From an uncultured Chloroflexia bacterium (GTDB lineage: Bacteria > Chloroflexota > UBA6077 > JACCZL01): a stretch of 64,000 nt of DNA. Made by a program: the position numbers and the translations under genes. Where the stretch lies: NCBI GenBank assembly GCA_963765765.1, contig CAVXYC010000018.1, forward strand, positions 64,001-128,000. The letters run 5' to 3'. Of the stretch, positions 8,356 to 61,010 are shown in pieces. Under the pieces are notes generated by a model. The model did no database searches. It was not told the DNA's origin and worked only from the letters and a program-made list of their open reading frames with translations. Position 1 is the first letter of the stretch, and each line of letters starts with the position of its first letter.

Positions 8356-9048
8356 TTAGTCGTCGTCGTCATCGTCGTCATCGTCGTCATCATCGTCATC
8401 GTCGTCATCATCGTCATCATCGTCATCATCGTCATCATCGTCATCGTCATCGTCGTCATCGTCGTCATCATCGTCGTCATCATCGTCATCATCGTCATCG
8501 TCGTCATCATCGTCATCATCGTCATCATCATCGTCGTCATCATCGTCATCGTCATCATCGTCATCATCGTCATCATCGTCATCATCGTCGTCATCATCGT
8601 CATCGTCATCGTCGTCATCATCGTCGTCATCATCGTCGTCATCATCGTCGTCATCATCACCCGCAGGAGCCGGGACGACGCTGCCGGTCTTGCTCACCAG
8701 GCTCGCTATGAACACTTTCCTGCCTACGTCGTATTGGCCCGTGACTGTGACGACATCGTATAGCGCGGGAGCGAACGGGGGCGCGTTCTGGATAGTGACC
8801 TGCTCAAGCTCGGCCGGATTGGTCAGCGCCGGACGTTCAAGGTTGAAGGTACCCGGCCCCCCTAGACCCAGTGAGACGATTGTCCCCCCGGTGGTCTCCA
8901 CCGGGCCCAGCTGCGCCGCCGGTGCGGCATGGACGTGCTTGATTGCCGGCGCCATGCCAAACGACACGGCGAGAACAACACCAAATATTGCCAGCGCGCG
9001 GCTTCCCGCGAGGGGCAACAGACGGAAAGCGGGGATGAACTTCCGCAT
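8356..9048 (-). CDS. Secreted protein with small beta-rich (OB-fold/DUF5666-like) domain and C-terminal poly-Asp(100) tail
   Basis: GGAGGT RBS before ATG 9048. Signal-peptide-like N-terminus ending VHA-A. Clear paralogue at 10185..10697. 100 Asp codons then TAA. Confidence 0.85.
   Translation of the reverse strand: MRKFIPAFRLLPLAGSRALAIFGVVLAVSFGMAPAIKHVHAAPAAQLGPVETTGGTIVSLGLGGPGTFNLERPALTNPAELEQVTIQNAPPFAPALYDVVTVTGQYDVGRKVFIASLVSKTGSVVPAPAGDDDDDDDDDDDDDDDDDDDDDDDDDDDDDDDDDDDDDDDDDDDDDDDDDDDDDDDDDDDDDDDDDDDDDDDDDDDDDDDDDDDDDDDDDDDDDDDDDDDD
8359..8658 (-). repeat. (GAY)100 trinucleotide tract encoding poly-aspartate
   Basis: 300 nt. Manual count gives 53 GAT and 47 GAC, interleaved, longest single-codon run 4, no non-Asp codon. 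Confidence 0.95.
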
Positions 9049-9378
9049 GCGATAAACCTCCACGTCCCAAAAGCTTGGGCGTACATAATGTGCTGGGGAC
9101 GGGACAGCTAGGTCGTCCGACTTCCCCGCTTCTACCATATTAGCTGAACGTCCATGGCTTTACTGCATCCGCTAGTATCAATTTCGTTGCTAAAGGAGCC
9201 ATTTCACCTCGAGCTCGGTATCAACATCATGGGTGAATTCCACCGCTCTCATCGTCATGCGAGAAGACTCCGACCCGCGCACATAGCCCCTTCCAGTCGC
9301 TTCGGTGGCGGTAGCCAGAGAGCCCTTCTGCTTCGATTACGCAGGGATCGCTTACGCGTTCTGGTACCATCGGCGCGT

Positions 9379-9778
9379 ATGAGTCCGCCTAGCCTGATCC
9401 TGCTCTTCGACGGCACCTGAGGGTTCTGCACTCGCACCGTGCGCTGGGTTCGGGCGCACGATGCCGCCGGCCGTGTGCTGGCCCTCCCGAATCAGACCCC
9501 CGGTATCCTCGAGCGCTACAGGATCACCCGCGAGGATGCAGACCGTGAGGTTTGGGCCGTGGACATCACCGGCCGGCACGTTCGGCGGCGCCGCGGCAAT
9601 CAACAGGGTGCTCGTGGATCTCGCCGGCCCATGGGCAATGCTCGGCGCCGCGTATCGGCTGCCGCCCGTCCGCTGGGCCGAGAACCTCGGGTATGCGTGG
9701 GTTGCCCGGAATCGGCACCGGTTTAGCCGCTGGGGCGTGACGCCGGAGTGCCAGGAGCCTGGCGTCTCCTGCGGTTGA
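9379..9778 (+). CDS. DCC-family (DUF393) thiol-disulfide oxidoreductase, probable selenoprotein (UxxC); one frameshift near 9575
   Basis: MSPPSLILLFDGT-TGA-GFCTRTVRWV matches the DCC DGxCxxC motif. After the frameshift: GAAAINRVL...GYAWVARNRHRF, the typical DCC C-terminal Y..VA.NR motif. Confidence 0.82.
9434..9464 (+). promoter_or_regulatory. Candidate bacterial SECIS element
   Basis: GCAC-CGTGCGC-TGGGTTCGG-GCGCACG-ATGC hairpin immediately 3' of the TGA at 9418-9420. The GGTT-containing loop is about 26 nt after the TGA. Confidence 0.65.
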
Positions 9779-10184: not shown

Positions 10185-10697
10185 TTAGTCGTTATCGTTG
10201 CCGTCGTCGTTATCGTTTCCGCCATCGTCGTTGTCATCGCCGCCGTCGTTGTCGTTGTTGTCCCCGCCTCCGCTACTCCGTACCGGGGCGGGGGCGGCGT
10301 TGCCCGACGAGGTCATGGACGTCGCCCGGAAGATCTTGGTGTCCGTATCATAATTGCCCGTGATGGAGAGAATTTCTGAGGGAATAACCAACGACGCCTG
10401 CGCCGTCTCGACGACCAGCTCCTCGAGCTGCGCCGGGTTGGTGATCGCCGGCCGCTCGGCATTGAAGCGAACCACACCTCCCGCCGCAATGATTGTCCCA
10501 GGAACCACCGTTGCGGTGAACGTCTCCACCGGGCCGATAATGGCTGACGGGGCCGCGTCGGCGCGCGTAGCCACCGATGCGGCTACGCCACCAATTGCCA
10601 TGGCAAAAATGCCTGCCACGGCGATTGCGGCACGCAATCCACTCATCATCTTATCCACTCCAGCGATACGCATCACTACCTCATAAGCTCCGCGCAT
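10185..10697 (-). CDS. Secreted paralogue of the poly-Asp protein with Asp/Asn/Gly-rich tail (true start may be 10673 or 10649)
   Basis: Shares AAP.A..GPVET, FN.ERPA.TNPA.LE, TG.YD...K.F.A and PAP with 8356..9048. Tail GGGDNNDNDGGDDNDDGGNDNDDGNDND. Confidence 0.85.
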   Translation of the reverse strand: MRGAYEVVMRIAGVDKMMSGLRAAIAVAGIFAMAIGGVAASVATRADAAPSAIIGPVETFTATVVPGTIIAAGGVVRFNAERPAITNPAQLEELVVETAQASLVIPSEILSITGNYDTDTKIFRATSMTSSGNAAPAPVRSSGGGDNNDNDGGDDNDDGGNDNDDGNDND

Positions 10698-12278: not shown

Positions 12279-12391
12279 TGTGGCACAGGTATGGGCGACC
12301 GGTCTATGACCAGATCCCAGCGATCAGTGCCGAGTCATGAGCGATGAGCACTCCGAGTGCTACCATCGGCAGCGCGAGGAGAGCAGCTCTG

Positions 12392-13463
12392 ATGACACGT
12401 TCGCATCGTATTGTGGTGATTCCGGGCGACAGCATTGGCCCGGAAATCGTCGAGTCCGGATTACGCATTGTGGAAGCCGCCCGCGAGCACGTGGGCGGTT
12501 TCGACCTGCAGATCGATCAGCACTCCGCTGGCGCGGGCCACTATCGCCAGTACGGTCGGAATATCGATCCGGAGACGCTCGAGGCCTGCCGAACCGCGGA
12601 TGCGGTGATCAAGGGCCCGGTAGGGCATCCTGACGTTCGCAACCCGGACGGCACCGAGGCAGGTCTGTTGGGCGGCGTACTACGACTGGGCCTGGATCTC
12701 TTTGCCAACATCCGCCGGTTAAGCTCTGGCCGGGCGTGAAGGCGCCGGTCACCTGGCAGCCGGGCGAGATCGACTACGTAATTGTCCGTGAGAACACCGA
12801 GGGTCTGTACGCCTCACGAGGCCTGGGCGTCTCCAATAACTGGGCCGCATCAGACATTCTGTTCATGACTCGGCCTGGCGTGGAGCGCGTCTCCCGAGCG
12901 GCGTTCGAGCTGGCGCGCAAGCGCCAGGGGGCACCCTCGGACGGTGCGCATCGCGTCACATGTGTGGAGAAGAGTAACGTGCTCAAGAGCATGGCGTTCT
13001 TCAAGGCCATATTTCTCGAGATCGCTGAGGAGTATCCGGATATCGAGCATGAGACCCTCTACTCCGACGCGGCTGCGCAAGCACTGGTACTCAACCCCAG
13101 CCACTTTGACGTGCTGGTGATGGAGAACTTTCTCGGCGATTTACTGAGCGACCTGGGCGGCGGCACCGTTGGGCGGGATCGGCATGTGCCCGTCCGGTAA
13201 TATCGGCGCCGACGCCGCGGTATTCGAGCCAATCCACGGGAGCGCGCCCTCGCTGGGCGGCGTTAAACCGAGCGAACCCTGTGGCTCAGGTACTGTCGTT
13301 TTCGATGCTGCTCACGCATATCGGAGAGGGCGATGCCGCAGCTGCGGTTGAACACGGCGTGGGAGCCGCGCTGGCTGACGGCTCACTCACCATCGCGCCC
13401 GACGGCTGTCCCGTGGGCGGAACGCGCGCGGCCGCAGACGCCATCATCGAGCGCATCGCCTGA
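12392..13463 (+). CDS. Isocitrate/isopropylmalate/tartrate dehydrogenase family protein, about 3 frameshifts
   Basis: [57 protein letters not shown] and ANP motifs spread over consecutive ORFs. Confidence 0.85.
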
Positions 13464-20896: not shown

Positions 20897-22128
20897 TTGC
20901 CCCTGTCAATGTTCGCCGTTCCCTGGACCCGGTACCTCTTCGTGGTGCTGCTCACGTCAAGCGAGAGCATCGCATACATACTTATCCCGCCGTATTTGCA
21001 GGAGCAGGGCTTTGACTATTCGCTCATTGGCCTACTGGTGGGCATCACCGGCGTGGCATCGCTCGGCTCCAGGTTTCCATCTGGCATGATCTATCGGCGT
21101 CACCGCGCCCAGCTTTTCACCAGCCTGGCATTGGCGCTGGTGGGCGTGTCGTATCTCTGCTACCCGCTAGCGGACAATGTCGGCTGGATCGCGCTCGCCT
21201 TGGGCGCCATTGGCTTTGGCTCGGGAGTGGCCACAACGCTCAACATGGCGATGTTCATGGACGCCATGCCGGCCGGCGCGGACAAGCACAACGCGATGTC
21301 CTTTTATGCAGCCACGATCTCTTTCGGACACTTGCTGGGCGGTCTCATCGGCGGGAATGCGGCGGATGCGTTCGGCTTCATTCCCTCGTTTCAGCTCGCC
21401 GCGGGATCCACCCTCGCAGCCATCGGCATTCTCTGGCTGGATCGCCTTCCCGCCGTATCCATCACCCGGCGGCGCATCACGCCCGCGGTTCCCAGCACGC
21501 GAGTCGACGCGATCGCTTCGTCGCGCTCATGCGCGTCTTTGCCGAACCGAAGATGGTGGTCATCTCCACCGTTGCGTTCTTGCTGAACTTCCTGCACGGC
21601 ATCGTCACCACGTTCTTCCCACTGTACGGCCTCGCGGCCGGCATGTCGCTCTCTGAGATAGCCTGGCTCAAGAGCGCACATTCACTCACCAACACATTTG
21701 CCCGGCCCGTAGCGGGAACGCCTATCCGATGGTTGGGAGCGGATCGCGCTTCCTACATCAGTCTGGCGCTGCTTGCGGGACTCATCACGTTGCTGCCCGG
21801 CCAGAATCAGTTCTGGATATTCGCCGCGCTGCTGGCGGGCATTGGTTTGATGCGCGCAATTGTCATGGTGGCTAATACCGTATCCATGGCAGACATGGAC
21901 GAATCGCGGATCAGTCGCGGCACAGCATCAGGCTTCTATCACTCCAGTAAGGACATGGGCAGCTTGAGCAGCCCTGCTATATGCGGCGCGCTGGCCTCCG
22001 CGGTTGGGTTGGGAACGATGCTAGTTGCGGCTCCAGTGGCCGCCACGGGTATCTTCTTCGGGATGGTAGGGCTGATGAGTCGCCGCAGGCTGGCGCGGCT
22101 GGAGAAGCCGGAGCCATTAACGACGTAG
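20897..22128 (+). CDS. MFS transporter, frameshift near 21500
   Basis: Two consecutive hydrophobic ORFs (20897..21586, 21529..22128), about 6 TM each. Confidence 0.8.
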
Positions 22129-33500: not shown

Positions 33501-34704
33501 ATGAAGCTCGACGAGAACACCAAGACCCTCATCACCCTCTACATCCCCTCATCAATTGTGAGCATCTCACAGGGGATGGTGGTACCGACGACGCCGGCGC
33601 TGGCCGCGTCATTCGATGTTCAGCCGGCGCTGGCGGCTCAAGTGGTGACCGCAAACCTCCTTGGGCGAATGCTCGTCACGCTGCCGTCCGGCATTCTCAT
33701 CGACCGCCTGGGCCGTAAGCCGGCGATGATCGGCGGGCCGATTCTTATCGTTCTCGGTTCAATCTTAACGGTGGTCACTCCATCGTTCGCCTTGCTGGTG
33801 GCTGCGCAGCTCTTATCCGGCGCGGGTGCAGCCATCTGGGCGCTGGGTCGCGAGATCGCCGCGATCGATCTGATTCGACCGAATCAACGCGGGCGAGTGC
33901 TGGCCCTGTTCTTTGGAATCAATTCGGCGGGACAGGCACTGGGCCCAGTCATCGGCGGAGTTGTCACCGATTGGTACGGGTACCGGGCGGTCTTCCTGAT
34001 CGCCATGCTGTTCTCATTCGGAGTTATTGCCCTCTCCGCGGCAATTCCAAGAGACCGGGAAAAAGCATGCTCCGCACACTCAAACCCATATGTTCGACTT
34101 CGGGAAGCTGAGCGACATCAACCCAATGTATCGAGTGACGTTCCTGGTCGTTGTCCTGGCAACGTTCGCGCAGATGATCCGCATGACCGTGGTCAGCGCC
34201 ATGCTGCCGCTACGCGTGGAGACTGAGTTGGGATTCTCCACCACGGAGGTCGGTGCGCTCTTTGGCATCATTGGCGTGGTCAACCTCATCGTGATGGGTC
34301 CGGCCGGTTGGATTAGCGATAAGTTCGGCCGCAAGGCTGCTACCGTTCCAGCGGCCGTGCTCACCGCGATTGCTTTTCTCACATACCCACTGGCCACCGA
34401 TATGTGGGCACTCTCGGCGATCTCCGTTCTAGTAGGGATCGCCAGCGGTTTCGCCCTGGGTGCTATGACCGTCTACACGTATGACATCGTGCCCGATCAT
34501 GCCCGCGGTCGTCTGCAAGCATTGCGACGCACGCTGGGCGAAATCGGCGGACTGGGCGGTCCGGTGGTCGCCGGCGCGGTTGCAACCGTCACCGGCCCTG
34601 GAGCGACGTTCCTGGTGTTCGCTCCGTTGCATCTCTTATCAGCGCTTCTGCTGGCGTTCGTCGCGGTGGAGACAGCGGGTCGGAAGAGGGCGCACGCGGT
34701 CTAA
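33501..34704 (+). CDS. MFS transporter, frameshift near 34050
   Basis: GILIDRLGRK and GWISDKFGRK motif-A repeats in two consecutive ORFs. Confidence 0.87.
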
Positions 34705-36735: not shown

Positions 36736-37661
36736 GTGAGCGTCCGCTCCACAACAGCCCCAACGCTTGGCGCGACGGACTGGGGACGCCTCGTTATTCT
36801 CTCGGTTCTCTGGGGAGGGTCGTTCCTCTTCATCAAGATCGCCGTAACTGAGCTTCCGCCGCTGCTCGTGGTTCTCGCCCGGGTAGGCATAGGAGCCGCT
36901 GCACTGCACATGGCCATCCGTTGGACGCGAGCCCGGATCCCCTGGAATCGCCCCCTGGCCGTTCGATTGTTCATCCTGGGTCTCGTCAATAATGTGATCC
37001 CGTTCAGCTTGATCTTCTTCGGCCAACGGGAGATTCCAGACCGGATTGGGCGCGATCCTGAACTCCACAATGCCCATCTTCAGCGTAATCCTGGCGCACT
37101 ATCTCACGCGCGACGAGCCCATGACAGCGCGCCGCATTCTCGGTGTGTTGCTGGGTGTGCTGGGCGTGATAGTGCTCGTGGGCTTCGGAGCAATCACCGG
37201 ATCCGTGCGTGAGCTGATCGGCATGGCAGCAATTATCCTGGCGTGCCTGAGCTACTCCCTGGGCGCCATCTATGCGCGTCGATTCCCGAGCCTTTCATCC
37301 GCGGCGCTTGCGGAAGGGCAGCTCGTCTGCGCCGCGCTGTTCCTATTTCCAATCGTCATGGTCGTTGACCAACCATGGACCGCTGCCACCGCCAAGTCTG
37401 GCCGCGGGCCTGGCCGTTCTGGCGCTCGCGATACTCTGCACGTCAATCGCCTACCTGCTGTACTTCCACGTGATCAAGACCAGCGGCGCCAGCAACGCCA
37501 GTCTTGTAACGCTGCTCATACCCATCAGCGGAGTCATCCTGGGCGCATTTGTTCTCCACGAGCCGATCCACCTGGAGCAGATCGCCGGCATGGCGCTGAT
37601 CATCTGCGGCCTCCTGGTCATCGACGGCCGCCTTTTCCAACGACAGAGTCGCATTCCGTGA
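36736..37661 (+). CDS. DMT/EamA family transporter, two frameshifts
   Basis: LWGGSFLFIKIA, NNVIPF, LNSTMPIF, LCTSIAYLLYF, LHEPI across three frames. Confidence 0.85.
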
Positions 37662-39151
37662 GCGCGCGGTTCCTACCGCGAACGCATCGGCCACGGGTCG
37701 ACCCAATGAGTTTGATCCGGGGCGCGCACGTGAGTAGCGGTTCCGCTAGCGAAATCCACGCGACTCTGAGGACGTGGATGAATGTGGTCGGATCCGGAGA
37801 TGCCGCGGAAGGAACCGCGCCCTTACGGGATGCGGTTCCGCTGGCTCCAGCACCGTCCGCTCGCCGCTCATCCACTCCCGCGCACCTTCCTCGGATGGGC
37901 ACATTCTTCGGCAGCTCCAGGTCCACGGGGATCAACCGCCAGACGTCCCCATGCGAAGCGCCGTAGGGTTCCACGCCCTGGCTAAGCTCGCGCGCGGCCC
38001 GCAGAAGCCGTCGCCGAACAGCGATCACCGCGGCGTCGCTCGTGCCCAGATGCTCCTTGGTGCGATCGTAGATCGCGCCAATCGGCTCGTTCACCGCGCG
38101 ATCCTGCTGGACCTGCGATTTGATGCCCGAGGCGGATGAGCGCCGTTGCGCGTCACGATCGATCAGGTAATCGTTGTCCTTGTTCTCCTTGCAGCGAAAC
38201 GTGCCCGGGATTAGCTCCGGGAAGAGCACGCCAGCAGTCTTGTAATCCTGCAGCTCGCCGTCTGACAGCGGCTTGTACGGGTTCCAGCGAATGCGGAACT
38301 GCCAGCTATGCTCGTCGTCAATGGGGACACGCAATGCGCCGAGCTGACTCGTTCCCGGTGCGCCGCCCATGACCATGCCGTAGGGCATGAACCAATGGTT
38401 GACATGCCAGCTATAGACGCCCTCGCCGGTGTCACGCCGCCAGGCCATGGTGATACCGACATCCGTCTCCGTAAGCATCGCCTGCGGTCGAGTATCCTCG
38501 ACGTAGAACCGCTTGATGCCCTGCCCGGCCACCGAGATCACGCCGTTCCTGACCCGCTCCAGAAATGGCTTGCTGGTGTCCGGGTCCAGTCGACTATGCA
38601 GAAACGCGAAGTGGCTATCGTCGATGTCGCCTTCGAGCGCCTGCAGGTAATTGCACTCCACCTCGAACTTCAGGATGTATCGATGGCTCTCGGGCAGGAG
38701 CATCCAGGCCAGCTCCGGCATCACCGGCCGCTTGTCCGCTGGGCCCATGTACGTCCAAACGATCCCCGCTCGCTCCACGCACGGGTACGTGACCACCCTG
38801 ACCTTGTGCTTGAAGTTGATTCCGGCGGCTCATTGGGCATATCCACGCACGCTCCGGAAGCATCGAACTTCCAGCCGTGGTAGACGCAGCGCAGCCCGTT
38901 CTCCTCGTTGCGCCCGAAGAACAGCGACGCCCCCCGATGCGGGCAGTTCTCCGCGACCAGCGAGACCGTCCCGTCAGTATCCCGAAAAGCGACCAGATTC
39001 TCGCTCAGCAGCCGAATCCGCACTGGCGGACAATCCGGCTCCGGCAGCTCCCAGCTCATCAAGGCCGGCAGCCAGAACCGCCGCCACAGCTCGCCCATCG
39101 GCGTGCCGGGCCGGTGCGGGTGATCAGCTCGTTGTCAGCGTGGGAGAGCAC
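37618..39151 (-). CDS. Rieske aromatic oxygenase alpha subunit (phthalate 4,5-dioxygenase/LigXa-like), several frameshifts; 3' end uncertain
   Basis: GTG start VLSHADNELITR, CPHRGASL, CVYHGWKFD, EGDIDDSHFAFLH, QDRAV, EHLGTSD. Confidence 0.88.
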
Positions 39152-42428: not shown

Positions 42429-43377
42429 ATGACCCTGTACATGACCCGACGCTTTGGTCAGCTCATACCGACGGTGCTCGGTATCGTGACCCTGGTGTTT
42501 CTCATGCTGCGGATGCTGCCGGGCGATCCGGCCGCGTTTATCGCGGGTGAAACCGCCGGTGAGGAAGCGCTTCAGGCCTTGCGCGAACAGCTCGGACTGA
42601 ACAAGCCGATGCTGCAGCAGTACACGGATTACGTATCCAACGTGCTCCAGCTCGACTTTGGTCGTTCAATCGTGAACGGTCTGCCGGTCCTGCAGCTCGT
42701 GGCGGGGGCCATGCCGGTCACACTCATCGTGGGGTTCATGAGCCTCATTGTGGGGTTTGTTCTGGCGGTTCCGCTGGGCACCGTGGCGGCATACCTGGCA
42801 TCGCGCGGGAAGACCGCGTTGGACCAGGGCCTAATCACCACCGCCATGTTCATCGACACCATGCCGTCGTTCTGGATTGGTCTCCTGCTGATGCTGCTGC
42901 TCACGCTGCAGCTTCGATGGCTGCCCGCCACAGGCACTCTGGACTACGGCGATCCCGATCGGAGTGATGAGGCGCCTGGCGCTGCCGGTCATCGTGCTGG
43001 CCATTGGACAGCTTGCCACCGTCGCGCGGATCACCCGAACCGCCGTGCTGGAGGTGATGAATGAGGACTACATACGGACGGCGCGCGCACTGGGCACCAG
43101 CGAGCTGACCATCCTGTTCAAGAACGCGCTGCCGAACGCTGCGCTTCCGGTAGTCACGGTGGCGGGACTCAGCTTCGGTCGCCTGCTGGGCGGCACCATC
43201 ATCGTCGAATCGATCTTTGCGCTACCGGGCATGGGCACGCTGTTGGTCAACGGCATCAACGGGCGCGACTATCCCGTGGTGCAGGGAGCCGTGCTGTTGT
43301 ACGCCTCGCTGTTCATCCTGGTGAACTTGATCACCGACCTTCTCTACACCCGCGTGGATCCGAGAGTGAGCTTATGA
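42429..43377 (+). CDS. ABC permease DppB/OppB-like, frameshift near 42960
   Basis: LPGDPA, LDFGRS, EDYIRTARALG, VESIFALPGMG, RDYPVVQG, DPRV. Confidence 0.9.
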
Positions 43378-59690: not shown

Positions 59691-61010
59691 ATGCTTAGTA
59701 AGGAAGACAATGTCACGCTGACTCAGGTAGGCCCCGGAACGCCCGGCGGCAACCTGATGAGGATGTACTGGCAGCCCGTAGCGGCAGCCAAGGAGCTTGA
59801 CGATTCGCCGTTCCGCACCAAGGAAGTGCGTGTGCTCGGCGAAGATCTCGTGCTCTTCCGTGATCGGCAGGGAAAGCTCGGGCTGATCGAGCGTTTCTGC
59901 TCCCACCGTCGCGTCAACCTCGCCATCGGCGTCGTCGAAGACGACGGTCTGCGCTGTCAGTATCACGGCTGGAAGTTCAACGCCCAGGGCCAGTGCATCG
60001 AGCAGCCGTTCGAAGACACGATGCATCCTGAAGACAGCGTTCCGTTCGAAGTGCGGCATCACTGGGTATCCGGTACGCGAGATGGCCGGACTCGTGTTCG
60101 CCTACATGGGCCCGACCCCGGCTCCGGAGTTCCCTGTGTGGGAGCCATACGCCTGGAACAACGTGGTGCGCGACATCGCCATCATTGAGCTGCACTGCAA
60201 CTGGCTTCAGTGCCAGGAGAACTCGCTCGATCCGGTTCACAACGAGTGGCTGCACGGCTACTACGGAAACTACGTACACAGCCTGATGGAGCTCGACACC
60301 AATCGAGGTGTGGGCAATCGCTCACTAAGAAGCACCTGAAGATCGGCTTCGATGCGTTCGAATACGGCATCGTCAAGCGACGGGTGCAAGAAGGCGGGAC
60401 TGAGGAGGACGATGACTGGAAAGTCGGCCACCCGGTGATGTTCCCGAACATCCTCCTGGTCGGCAGCCAGTTCTCAGCCACGATGCAGTTCCGCGTGCCC
60501 GTGGACGACACCAAGACGCTGCACATCTCGCTCTACTCGTTCCGTGCGGCGCCAGGTGCCAAAGCTCCCCAGCAGGACTCGGTGCCCTACCGCTATGTGA
60601 ACCTTCACAAGGGCGATGGCAACTGGATCCTGAACTACATCTTCAACCAGGACTACAGCGCGTGGGTGACGCAGGGACCGGTAGCCAAGCGCCACCTGGA
60701 GAAGCTGGGCGAGTCTGACCGCGGCATCATCATGTTCCGCCAGCAGCTCAAAGACCAGATCGCCATCGTGGAAGCCGGCAACGATCCGATGTGCGTCTTC
60801 CGCGAGCCTGAGCAGGCCCAGTTCGTGGAGCTGCCACTGGAGAAGGACAAATTCGGCGCCAACCGACGGCCACCGAAATATGTGCCCGGCGAAGAAGGCT
60901 ACAGCGCCGACGCGAAGCTTATTGAGCAGACGCTGGCCACCTGGGACGCGCTGCCGGAGCACGCGGCGGTGCCGGTTCCGGCCAGCCCGAGTCCAGCACC
61001 AGTCCGTTAG
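59691..61010 (+). CDS. Rieske aromatic oxygenase alpha subunit, two frameshifts
   Basis: LTQVGPGTPGG, CSHR, CQYHGW, ENSLDPVHNEWLH, NQDY, EKLGESDRG. Confidence 0.88.

Follow-up and report, generated by a model that had tools for sequence, protein, structure and literature searches.

A DCC1-like gene with an in-frame TGA in its active-site motif

We analysed a 64,000-nucleotide stretch of DNA from an uncultured Chloroflexia bacterium (contig CAVXYC010000018.1 of assembly GCA_963765765.1; the whole stretch is called the window below), with a focus on one DCC1-like (PF04134) gene at 9379-9778 on the plus strand. It is flanked by two minus-strand genes and stands alone on its strand. The window genome (G000) is assembled into 33 contigs and is 91.84% complete. 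The original prediction, made from the sequence of the window, had read this gene as a hidden selenoprotein gene whose internal TGA encodes selenocysteine (Sec; U in the motifs below). The locus contains the following features.

9379..9381 (+), ATG start codon of the DCC1-like gene, opening MSPPSLILLFDGT-U-GFC...; the N-termini of homologues before the LLFDG strand are equally short
9379..9576 (+), N-terminal part in frame 1, residues 1-66 through ...VDITGR, with a PF04134 match
9418..9420 (+), TGA within the frame where the first CxxC cysteine would be coded, a putative Sec codon (U14) aligned to Cys or TGA in relatives
9427..9429 (+), TGC, the second motif Cys (UGFC); UxxU and CxxU relatives have TGA here
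9434..9464 (+), hairpin resembling a selenocysteine insertion sequence (SECIS), identified by folding and by position-specific comparison of Sec and Cys forms
9571..9576 (+), frameshift site GGCCGG, with one extra G (reported at 9575) compared with GGC-CGC-ACG-TTC (G-R-T-F) in relatives
9578..9775 (+), C-terminal part in frame 2 (TFGGAAAINRVL...ECQEPGVSCG), with a PF04134 match
9749..9772 (+), C-terminal C-x6-C pair
9776..9778 (+), TGA that forms the true stop of the gene, where frame 2 terminates

Read from the ATG at 9379, frame 1 yields MSPPSLILLFDGT, the TGA and then GFC-TRTVRWVRAHD..., and it matches positions 1-57 of the PF04134 profile at 35.3 bits, compared with a Pfam gathering cut-off of 27.8. 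Frame 2, which carries the gene on after ~9575, matches profile positions 64-113 at 32.8 bits against the same cut-off. The motif reads D-G-T-U-G-F-C against the family pattern D-x-x-C-x-x-C: the TGA replaces the first Cys codon, and the second Cys is present. Since its second motif codon is TGC, the window gene is of the UxxC type and not UxxU. Alignment and the PF04134 match therefore confirm the predicted placement of the TGA on the first Cys of the DCC motif, in a frame that goes on as DCC sequence. The two additional C-terminal Cys codons that had been pointed out are likewise present (TGC at 9749-9751 and TGC at 9770-9772), and the reported break of the gene into three open reading frame (ORF) pieces is explained by the TGA at 9418-9420 together with the frameshift near 9575.

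TGA recurs at the two motif cysteines of homologues

A search of 66 genomes of the same class recovered a DCC match in 29, G000 included. Of the other 28 DCC-bearing genomes, 18 have a CxxC gene. The remaining 10 have TGA in one or both motif Cys columns, with no further in-frame TGA and an otherwise open frame as far as the terminal stop. The class-level Sec-type relatives display six motif variants.

UGFU: G004, G011, G048, G065
UGLU: G041
UAFU: G007
UGFC: G039, G049
UPFC: G051
CGFU: G005

Both motif positions are thus UGA-coded (UxxU) in six of these relatives (G004, G007, G011, G041, G048 and G065). The column of the window TGA (9418-9420) holds Cys in 18 class-level relatives and TGA in nine, and the tenth Sec-type relative carries TGA at the second Cys only. 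When the window gene is taken together with the 10 Sec-type relatives, all in-frame TGAs (17/17) fall on the two motif Cys columns. The class set includes two unpublished genomes, one with a Sec form (G049) and one with a Cys form (G006).

A wider scan, with the degenerate pattern F-D-G-x-U-G-F-(C/U) and one genome per species, returned at least 119 loci. Among the matches listed, 37 were DCC genes according to a hidden Markov model (HMM) of alignment A1 (19 UGFU and 18 UGFC), and every one of them (37/37) stays open for more than 105 residues beyond the TGA. Going by their record titles, these listed genes comprised 20 of Chloroflexota type, 15 of Actinomycetota type (Rubrobacter, Ilumatobacter, Acidimicrobiia) and one from Thermoanaerobaculia. 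The pattern-scan and class-level sets may overlap, and their counts are not additive. Homologues with either TGA or Cys at this site, the comparison that the original prediction had proposed, thus exist in both forms: TGA at one or both motif cysteines in 10/28 class-level relatives, TGA in the 37 listed pattern-scan genes, and CxxC in the other 18 class-level relatives.

The annotation of database relatives carries the same signature. Using the closest intact homologue as query against a large protein database (E 1e-10 or better, n = 105), we found that 72 of the 105 relatives begin just past the motif (MRWVRAHD..., MLALPNQ...), the pattern expected where gene callers resume past a TGA; the other 33 are full-length CxxC proteins. 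This bears out the expectation that annotation pipelines would miss the gene. The relatives are named 'DCC1-like thiol-disulfide oxidoreductase family protein' or 'YuxK', and none (0/105) is named a selenoprotein. A locus search with the 74-aa N half as query recovered one relative only.

The TGA is also retained in related environmental DNA. The original prediction had raised the case of reads carrying TGC or TGT at this position; a soil-metagenome contig of X3 that covers 9238-9438 keeps both the TGA at 9418-9420 and the TGC three codons on unchanged.

The C-terminal C-x6-C pair is kept in much of the Sec-type subfamily (ECQEPGVSC here; ACDEPGIEC, YCEQHPEEC and WCLEHAGGC in relatives). It is missing in a shorter clade (G002, G004, G005, G006, G007 and G008), Sec forms included.

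A hairpin at a fixed place downstream of the TGA

Bacterial SECIS elements are hairpins situated directly 3′ of the UGA, and their apical loop opens with a G. The distance from UGA to loop accepted by bSECISearch is reportedly about 16-37 nt. Folding of the window sequence recovered the hairpin that had been described downstream of the TGA, at 9434-9464. Its core consists of 8 bp, 9438-9445 with 9453-9460 (CGUGCGCU/GGCGCACG), the last pair being U-G. Three outer pairs (9434-9436 with 9462-9464) are separated from this core by a 1x1 internal loop. The apical loop, GGGUUCG at 9446-9452, begins with a G, and its first base lies 25 nt after the TGA.

The comparison of Sec and Cys forms was restricted by position, the measure being the best uninterrupted hairpin with its loop centre 29-34 nt downstream of the codon for the first Cys or Sec. 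One Cys form, L064 (G064), is left out of these tests, its D-D-E-C-G-L-C having been missed by the motif regex. A hairpin of -10.4 kcal/mol or lower was found in 10/11 Sec forms versus 1/17 Cys forms, with medians of -13.3 and -5.1 kcal/mol, respectively. When each gene was compared with 200 synonymous-codon variants of itself, 9/11 Sec forms ranked in the best 5%, as did 2/17 Cys forms. The window hairpin, at -14.6 kcal/mol, stands against a synonymous-codon null mean of -6.3 (z -2.35), and 1.5% of its 200 variants were as stable. Stem sequence varies by subclade and the place remains constant, as seen in CGUGCGC/GCGCACG, GUCGUC/GGCGAC and GCGGUCCGG/CUGGACCGC. In an RNAalifold analysis of a codon-locked alignment of 10 Sec sequences (G051 excluded for want of a hairpin at this place), two pairs swap GC and CG (6:4 and 6:3).

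Two genes depart from the general distribution. L061 (G051), with the motif UPFC, has neither a hairpin at the expected place nor the conserved D-R..G-R and P-x-Q, and it may be decaying or may use another recoding signal. L038 (G033), a Cys form with the motif CGVC, has a strong hairpin (6 bp, GC; -11.9 kcal/mol) in the position occupied in Sec forms and may be a recent Sec-to-Cys convert.

Selenocysteine machinery of the genome and a tRNA-Sec gene missing from its assembly

The G000 assembly encodes selA (472.7 bits) with an adjoining selB (312-337 bits). It also holds selD (381.6 bits; G000:C21:109702-110619, plus strand), whose single internal TGA falls on the canonical Sec site (SHGAG-U-ACK), and fdhA, the formate dehydrogenase alpha subunit gene (983 bits; G000:C15:217264-220269, minus strand), which contains one in-frame TGA. 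The presence of selA, selB, a Sec-type selD and a TGA-containing fdhA indicates that the Sec trait is in use in G000. Of the four genes for which the original prediction had suggested a search, selA, selB and selD were thus found, and selC, the gene for tRNA-Sec, was not found in this assembly.

Several approaches were applied to selC. With the Rfam model RF01852, G000 gave only matches of tRNA-Ser or tRNA-Leu type, the sole one above the cut-off being a tRNA-Ser(GCT). A blastn search with the tRNA-Sec of five relatives returned no tRNA-Sec in G000; the best match, on C12, is not a tRNA. A regex scan of G000 for tRNA-Sec yielded only a tRNA-Leu-like gene with a UCA anticodon. No tRNA genes occur at the selA/selB and selD loci within about 1.5 kb either side of the matches, and the G000 matches to the flank of G001 selC, at 76% and 73%, are paralogue-like and have no adjoining tRNA.

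One candidate was rejected. ARAGORN calls a 'tRNA-SeC' at G000:C15:168062-168147 on the minus strand (L066, 566-648, minus strand); this gene represents a tRNA-Leu(UAA) copy that has diverged, with the anticodon UCA and 90% identity to the tRNA-Leu(UAA) at G000:C20:72131-72211. In the copy, the acceptor stem contains two mismatches and the D-stem is broken. It is probably a decayed tRNA-Leu copy and a tRNA pseudogene; a role as a weak UGA suppressor is less probable.

A canonical 94-nt tRNA-Sec, scoring 65-76 bits, was detected in all six tested relatives with a Sec-type DCC gene (G004, G005, G007, G011, G039 and G041). It is also present in G001, which belongs to the same genus as G000 (72.7 bits), and in G002 and G008; G003 gave no tRNA-Sec at E 1e-8. 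Because selA and selB are intact and because both selD and fdhA depend on Sec, the simplest reading would be that selC is unassembled or unbinned in G000.

The frameshift near 9575

In the window, the letters at the junction read ACC GGC CGG CAC GTT, and frame 2 picks up at ACG TTC GGC. The extra base is absent from three related sequences. A soil-metagenome contig of X3 covering 9430-9620, which has five other differences, carries one base fewer at 9575; a contig of X4, from a run of another study, has the same junction, reached via the loose end of that contig; and both contigs yield G-R-T-F-G-G-A-A-A in one frame. The third is the database protein P0020 (112 aa), which reads ...DITGRTFGGAAA... 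in one frame and shares 96% identity with the N half of the window gene (over P0020 residues 1-46) and 95% with the C half (over P0020 residues 47-112). Both the TGA and the indel had been marked for confirmation in reads. In these sequences, which represent related DNA and not the source reads, the TGA was kept in the X3 contig, and the indel appeared in neither the X3 and X4 contigs nor P0020. In the search of sequencing runs, the best run contained 0.19 of the sampled words and none scored higher; no RNA run was listed.

No class-level relative exhibits a frameshift at 9575. We therefore rejected programmed +1 frameshifting at this site, the shift being present in no relative.

Other genes of the window are split or half-length as well. 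The Iso_dh (isocitrate/isopropylmalate dehydrogenase) gene at 12341-13460 (plus strand) lies in four overlapping pieces in three frames (profile 2-102, 102-255, 250-292 and 278-329), which implies that 1.1 kb contains three frameshifts or more. The N and C parts of an ABC permease (42429-43374, plus strand) occupy two frames, and a Rieske/LigXa_C gene (37621-39134, minus strand) has its Rieske and LigXa_C catalytic domains in two overlapping frames. Two MFS matches (20897-21583 and 34000-34701, both plus strand) cover the first half of the profile only, and a further LigXa_C match (59887-61007, plus strand) is partial. These split and half-length genes suggest indel errors in the assembly. Judged from such sequence comparisons, the extra G near 9575 is most probably a consensus error of the assembly; that it is a real and very recent lesion in the strain is a distinctly weaker possibility.

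Weighing the readings of the locus

Taken together, the recurrence of TGA in homologues, the presence of selA, selB and selD, the X3 contig and the position-specific hairpin support the selenoprotein reading of the original prediction, and we estimate at about 0.82 the probability that the window gene is a genuine Sec-type (UxxC) DCC1-like selenoprotein gene. Of the three outcomes named with the original prediction as speaking against it (a genome devoid of Sec machinery, TGC or TGT in reads, and no homologue sharing the TGA), none was encountered, the second being judged on the related X3 contig. A number of observations weigh against this reading. With its frame shift near 9575, the window copy is not a single continuous frame of ~110-150 residues and cannot be read as a full protein in this assembly. 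Canonical tRNA-Sec was not found in G000 by Rfam, blastn or regex, a result for which the 91.84% completeness means that true absence is not established. The same-genus genome G001 (92% complete) gave no DCC gene by two queries, and the Sec-type gene of G051 is divergent in sequence as well as being devoid of the hairpin at its usual place.

The hairpin evidence has its own counterweights. Plain folding of 9418-9480 compared with dinucleotide shuffles gave z +0.95, not above chance. The minimum free energy of the whole stretch compared with synonymous-codon variants gave z -0.70 for the window, with Sec and Cys groups alike (p 0.29), and this null result is the reason why the position-restricted test was used instead. 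The Mann-Whitney p of 1e-4 for Sec versus Cys hairpin energies is overstated because kin are not independent. RNAalifold produced a weak 4-bp consensus, since the register of the hairpin slides by 1-2 nt between subclades. In the pattern-scan set (36 distinct sequences, that is, 37 minus one duplicate), 9/36 reach -10.4 kcal/mol and 16/36 reach -8 kcal/mol by the strict uninterrupted-stem measure; many of these hairpins look bulge-interrupted, as judged by eye only. The hairpin is distinctive by its place, not by plain folding energy.

Three other accounts of the locus were considered. The window copy could be a pseudogene within a real selenoprotein family, the extra G being a true mutation that throws the gene out of frame past residue 66. 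The frameshift is indeed present in the assembly, the lack of the gene in G001 suggests that DCC is dispensable in the genus, and the G000 assembly offers no canonical selC; yet three independent near-identical sequences (the X3 contig, the X4 contig and P0020) do without the extra base, the frame-2 protein past the shift is still stop-free and 95% identical to P0020, and selA, selB, selD and fdhA are intact. Split or half-length genes at four other places in the window also fit assembly indels better than one special lesion, and we consider a pseudogene unlikely. A far less probable account takes the TGA as a plain nonsense mutation or base-call error in a dead gene, with the hairpin as a by-product of GC-rich coding sequence. 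Such an account can draw on an error-prone assembly and on a hairpin that folds no better than shuffles, but it must contend with a TGA that persists in a contig of related metagenomic DNA and that recurs at exactly two Cys columns, with open frames beyond, in the 10 class-level relatives and the 37 listed pattern-scan genes. It also fails to accommodate the 72/105 database relatives that start past the motif, as if gene callers had stopped at TGA, and a codon choice by which Sec forms, unlike Cys forms, preserve a hairpin at one constant position.

We regard as equally improbable the decoding of UGA as a standard amino acid, whether by the tRNA-Leu-derived UCA tRNA or by a near-cognate tRNA-Cys or tRNA-Trp. 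A UCA-anticodon tRNA does exist in the genome, and a canonical selC is missing from the assembly; that tRNA, however, has the stem defects described above, and its best match in G001 is an ordinary tRNA-Leu(UAA). Leu would be chemically senseless at a catalytic Cys position, TGA also terminates the window gene and the genes of its relatives, and relatives with the same TGA possess canonical tRNA-Sec.

Predicted fold and proposed mechanism

From a 44-row alignment, AlphaFold2 modelled the closest intact homologue with a predicted local distance difference test (pLDDT) score of 96.2 and a predicted TM-score (pTM) of 0.88. In the modelled topology, a strand (3-7) is followed by the motif (11-14), which leads into a helix (12-24), and then by more strands and helices with a helical C-terminal half. 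Fold matches were weak (Foldseek best E 0.033; VIA-align best Z 5.9), all of them being to proteins of thioredoxin, glutaredoxin-like, DsbD or GST type. The model thus fits the family name, and a thioredoxin-like fold is not proven by it. No NCBIfam model matches the gene, and a sequence search of the PDB gave no relevant match.

Under the selenoprotein reading, the gene would encode a 132-residue DCC1-like thiol-disulfide oxidoreductase in which the first active-site Cys is Sec, with the motif U-G-F-C. SelB carrying Sec-tRNA(Sec) would bind the hairpin at 9434-9464 and deliver Sec at the UGA at 9418-9420. The selenolate would then carry out the attack, as part of a thioredoxin-like motif where helix 1 begins, and Cys17 would be the resolving residue. 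We infer Sec insertion, SelB binding, this redox chemistry and the existence of selC in the real genome from the gene and its genomic context. The extra G near 9575 would be no part of the gene design. Where relatives have UGA at the second motif position (UxxU and CxxU), that codon lies 9 nt nearer to the hairpin and would depend on the same hairpin, and in UxxU genes this one hairpin appears to be the only candidate for both UGAs, which lie 9 nt apart.

Relation to known families and significance

The window gene resembles Cys-form DCC1-like proteins (DUF393, YuxK; PF04134), which are ~130 aa long and carry an N-terminal D-G-x-C-x-x-C at the same place. It differs from them in having TGA as the first Cys codon, accompanied by the hairpin, and its relatives have TGA at the second codon or at both. 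Under the database names 'DCC1-like...' and 'YuxK', the truncated products of Sec-type genes appear with the motif missing.

Its UxxU relatives invite comparison with SelL and the Prx-like UxxU selenoproteins, reportedly described by Shchedrina and colleagues in 2007, which are said to contain two Sec three positions apart and for which a diselenide was proposed. The window gene itself, in contrast, is UxxC, and the families differ (PF04134 versus PF00578).

Table 1 of a May 2026 review (PMC13188914) lists Sec-Trx, Sec-Grx, DsbA-like and Prx-like thiol:disulfide oxidoreductases (UxxC/UxxU) among selenoprotein families, and PF04134 (DCC, DUF393, YuxK) is not among its 119 prokaryotic selenoprotein families and subfamilies. 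Common to these thioredoxin-fold selenoproteins and, as predicted, the DCC proteins are Sec replacing the redox Cys where a helix begins and a thioredoxin-like domain; shared as well are frequent Cys homologues and a hairpin directly 3′ of the UGA; they differ in belonging to other Pfam families, and DCC shows UxxC, CxxU and UxxU in one class. A term search of the remaining text of PMC13188914 gave no mention of the DCC family. Nor did passage searches find it in a review of 2022, in the paper on deep-Sep or in the one on BSepDB (PMC9312934, PMC12013277 and PMC13326102), and the supplements of these papers could hold the family; the part of the BSepDB supplement (PMC13326102) that was searched contained no DCC family. 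Literature searches returned no paper linking DCC, DUF393 or YuxK to selenoprotein or selenocysteine.

These comparisons suggest that DCC1-like proteins probably constitute a widespread selenoprotein family outside the catalogues, found here mostly in metagenome genomes from soil and sediment, in which CxxC, UxxC, CxxU and UxxU interchange within one class and a single hairpin would recode two UGAs 9 nt apart. If so, a common and barely studied redox family, PF04134, would join the selenoproteome. Most of its Sec-type members would at present be annotated as truncated proteins without an active site, as in the 72/105 database relatives, and selenoproteome counts for soil Chloroflexota and Actinomycetota would consequently be too low. 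The occurrence of UxxC, CxxU and UxxU among close relatives makes for a compact system for Sec/Cys exchange, and it would offer a natural series for the gain of a selenylsulfide or diselenide centre over a disulfide. The UxxU forms would further bear on the spacing tolerance of SelB and SECIS, with one SECIS for two UGAs. To this picture the window adds two points of its own: its frameshift, which probably arose as an artefact of assembly, and the lack of a tRNA-Sec gene among the assembled contigs. Given an assembly with frameshift errors, the assembled gene most likely differs from the gene of the organism.

Neighbouring genes

The two minus-strand genes that flank the DCC1-like gene, at 8356-9138 and 10185-10697, are mutual paralogues without a Pfam match and share motifs such as GPVET...NPA(E/Q)LE.... 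The product of 8356-9138 ends in a run of ~120 aspartates, and that of 10185-10697 has a tail rich in Asp, Asn and Gly. Each contains a hydrophobic stretch (at about residues 30-65 in the first and 18-43 in the second) that may represent a signal peptide or membrane anchor.

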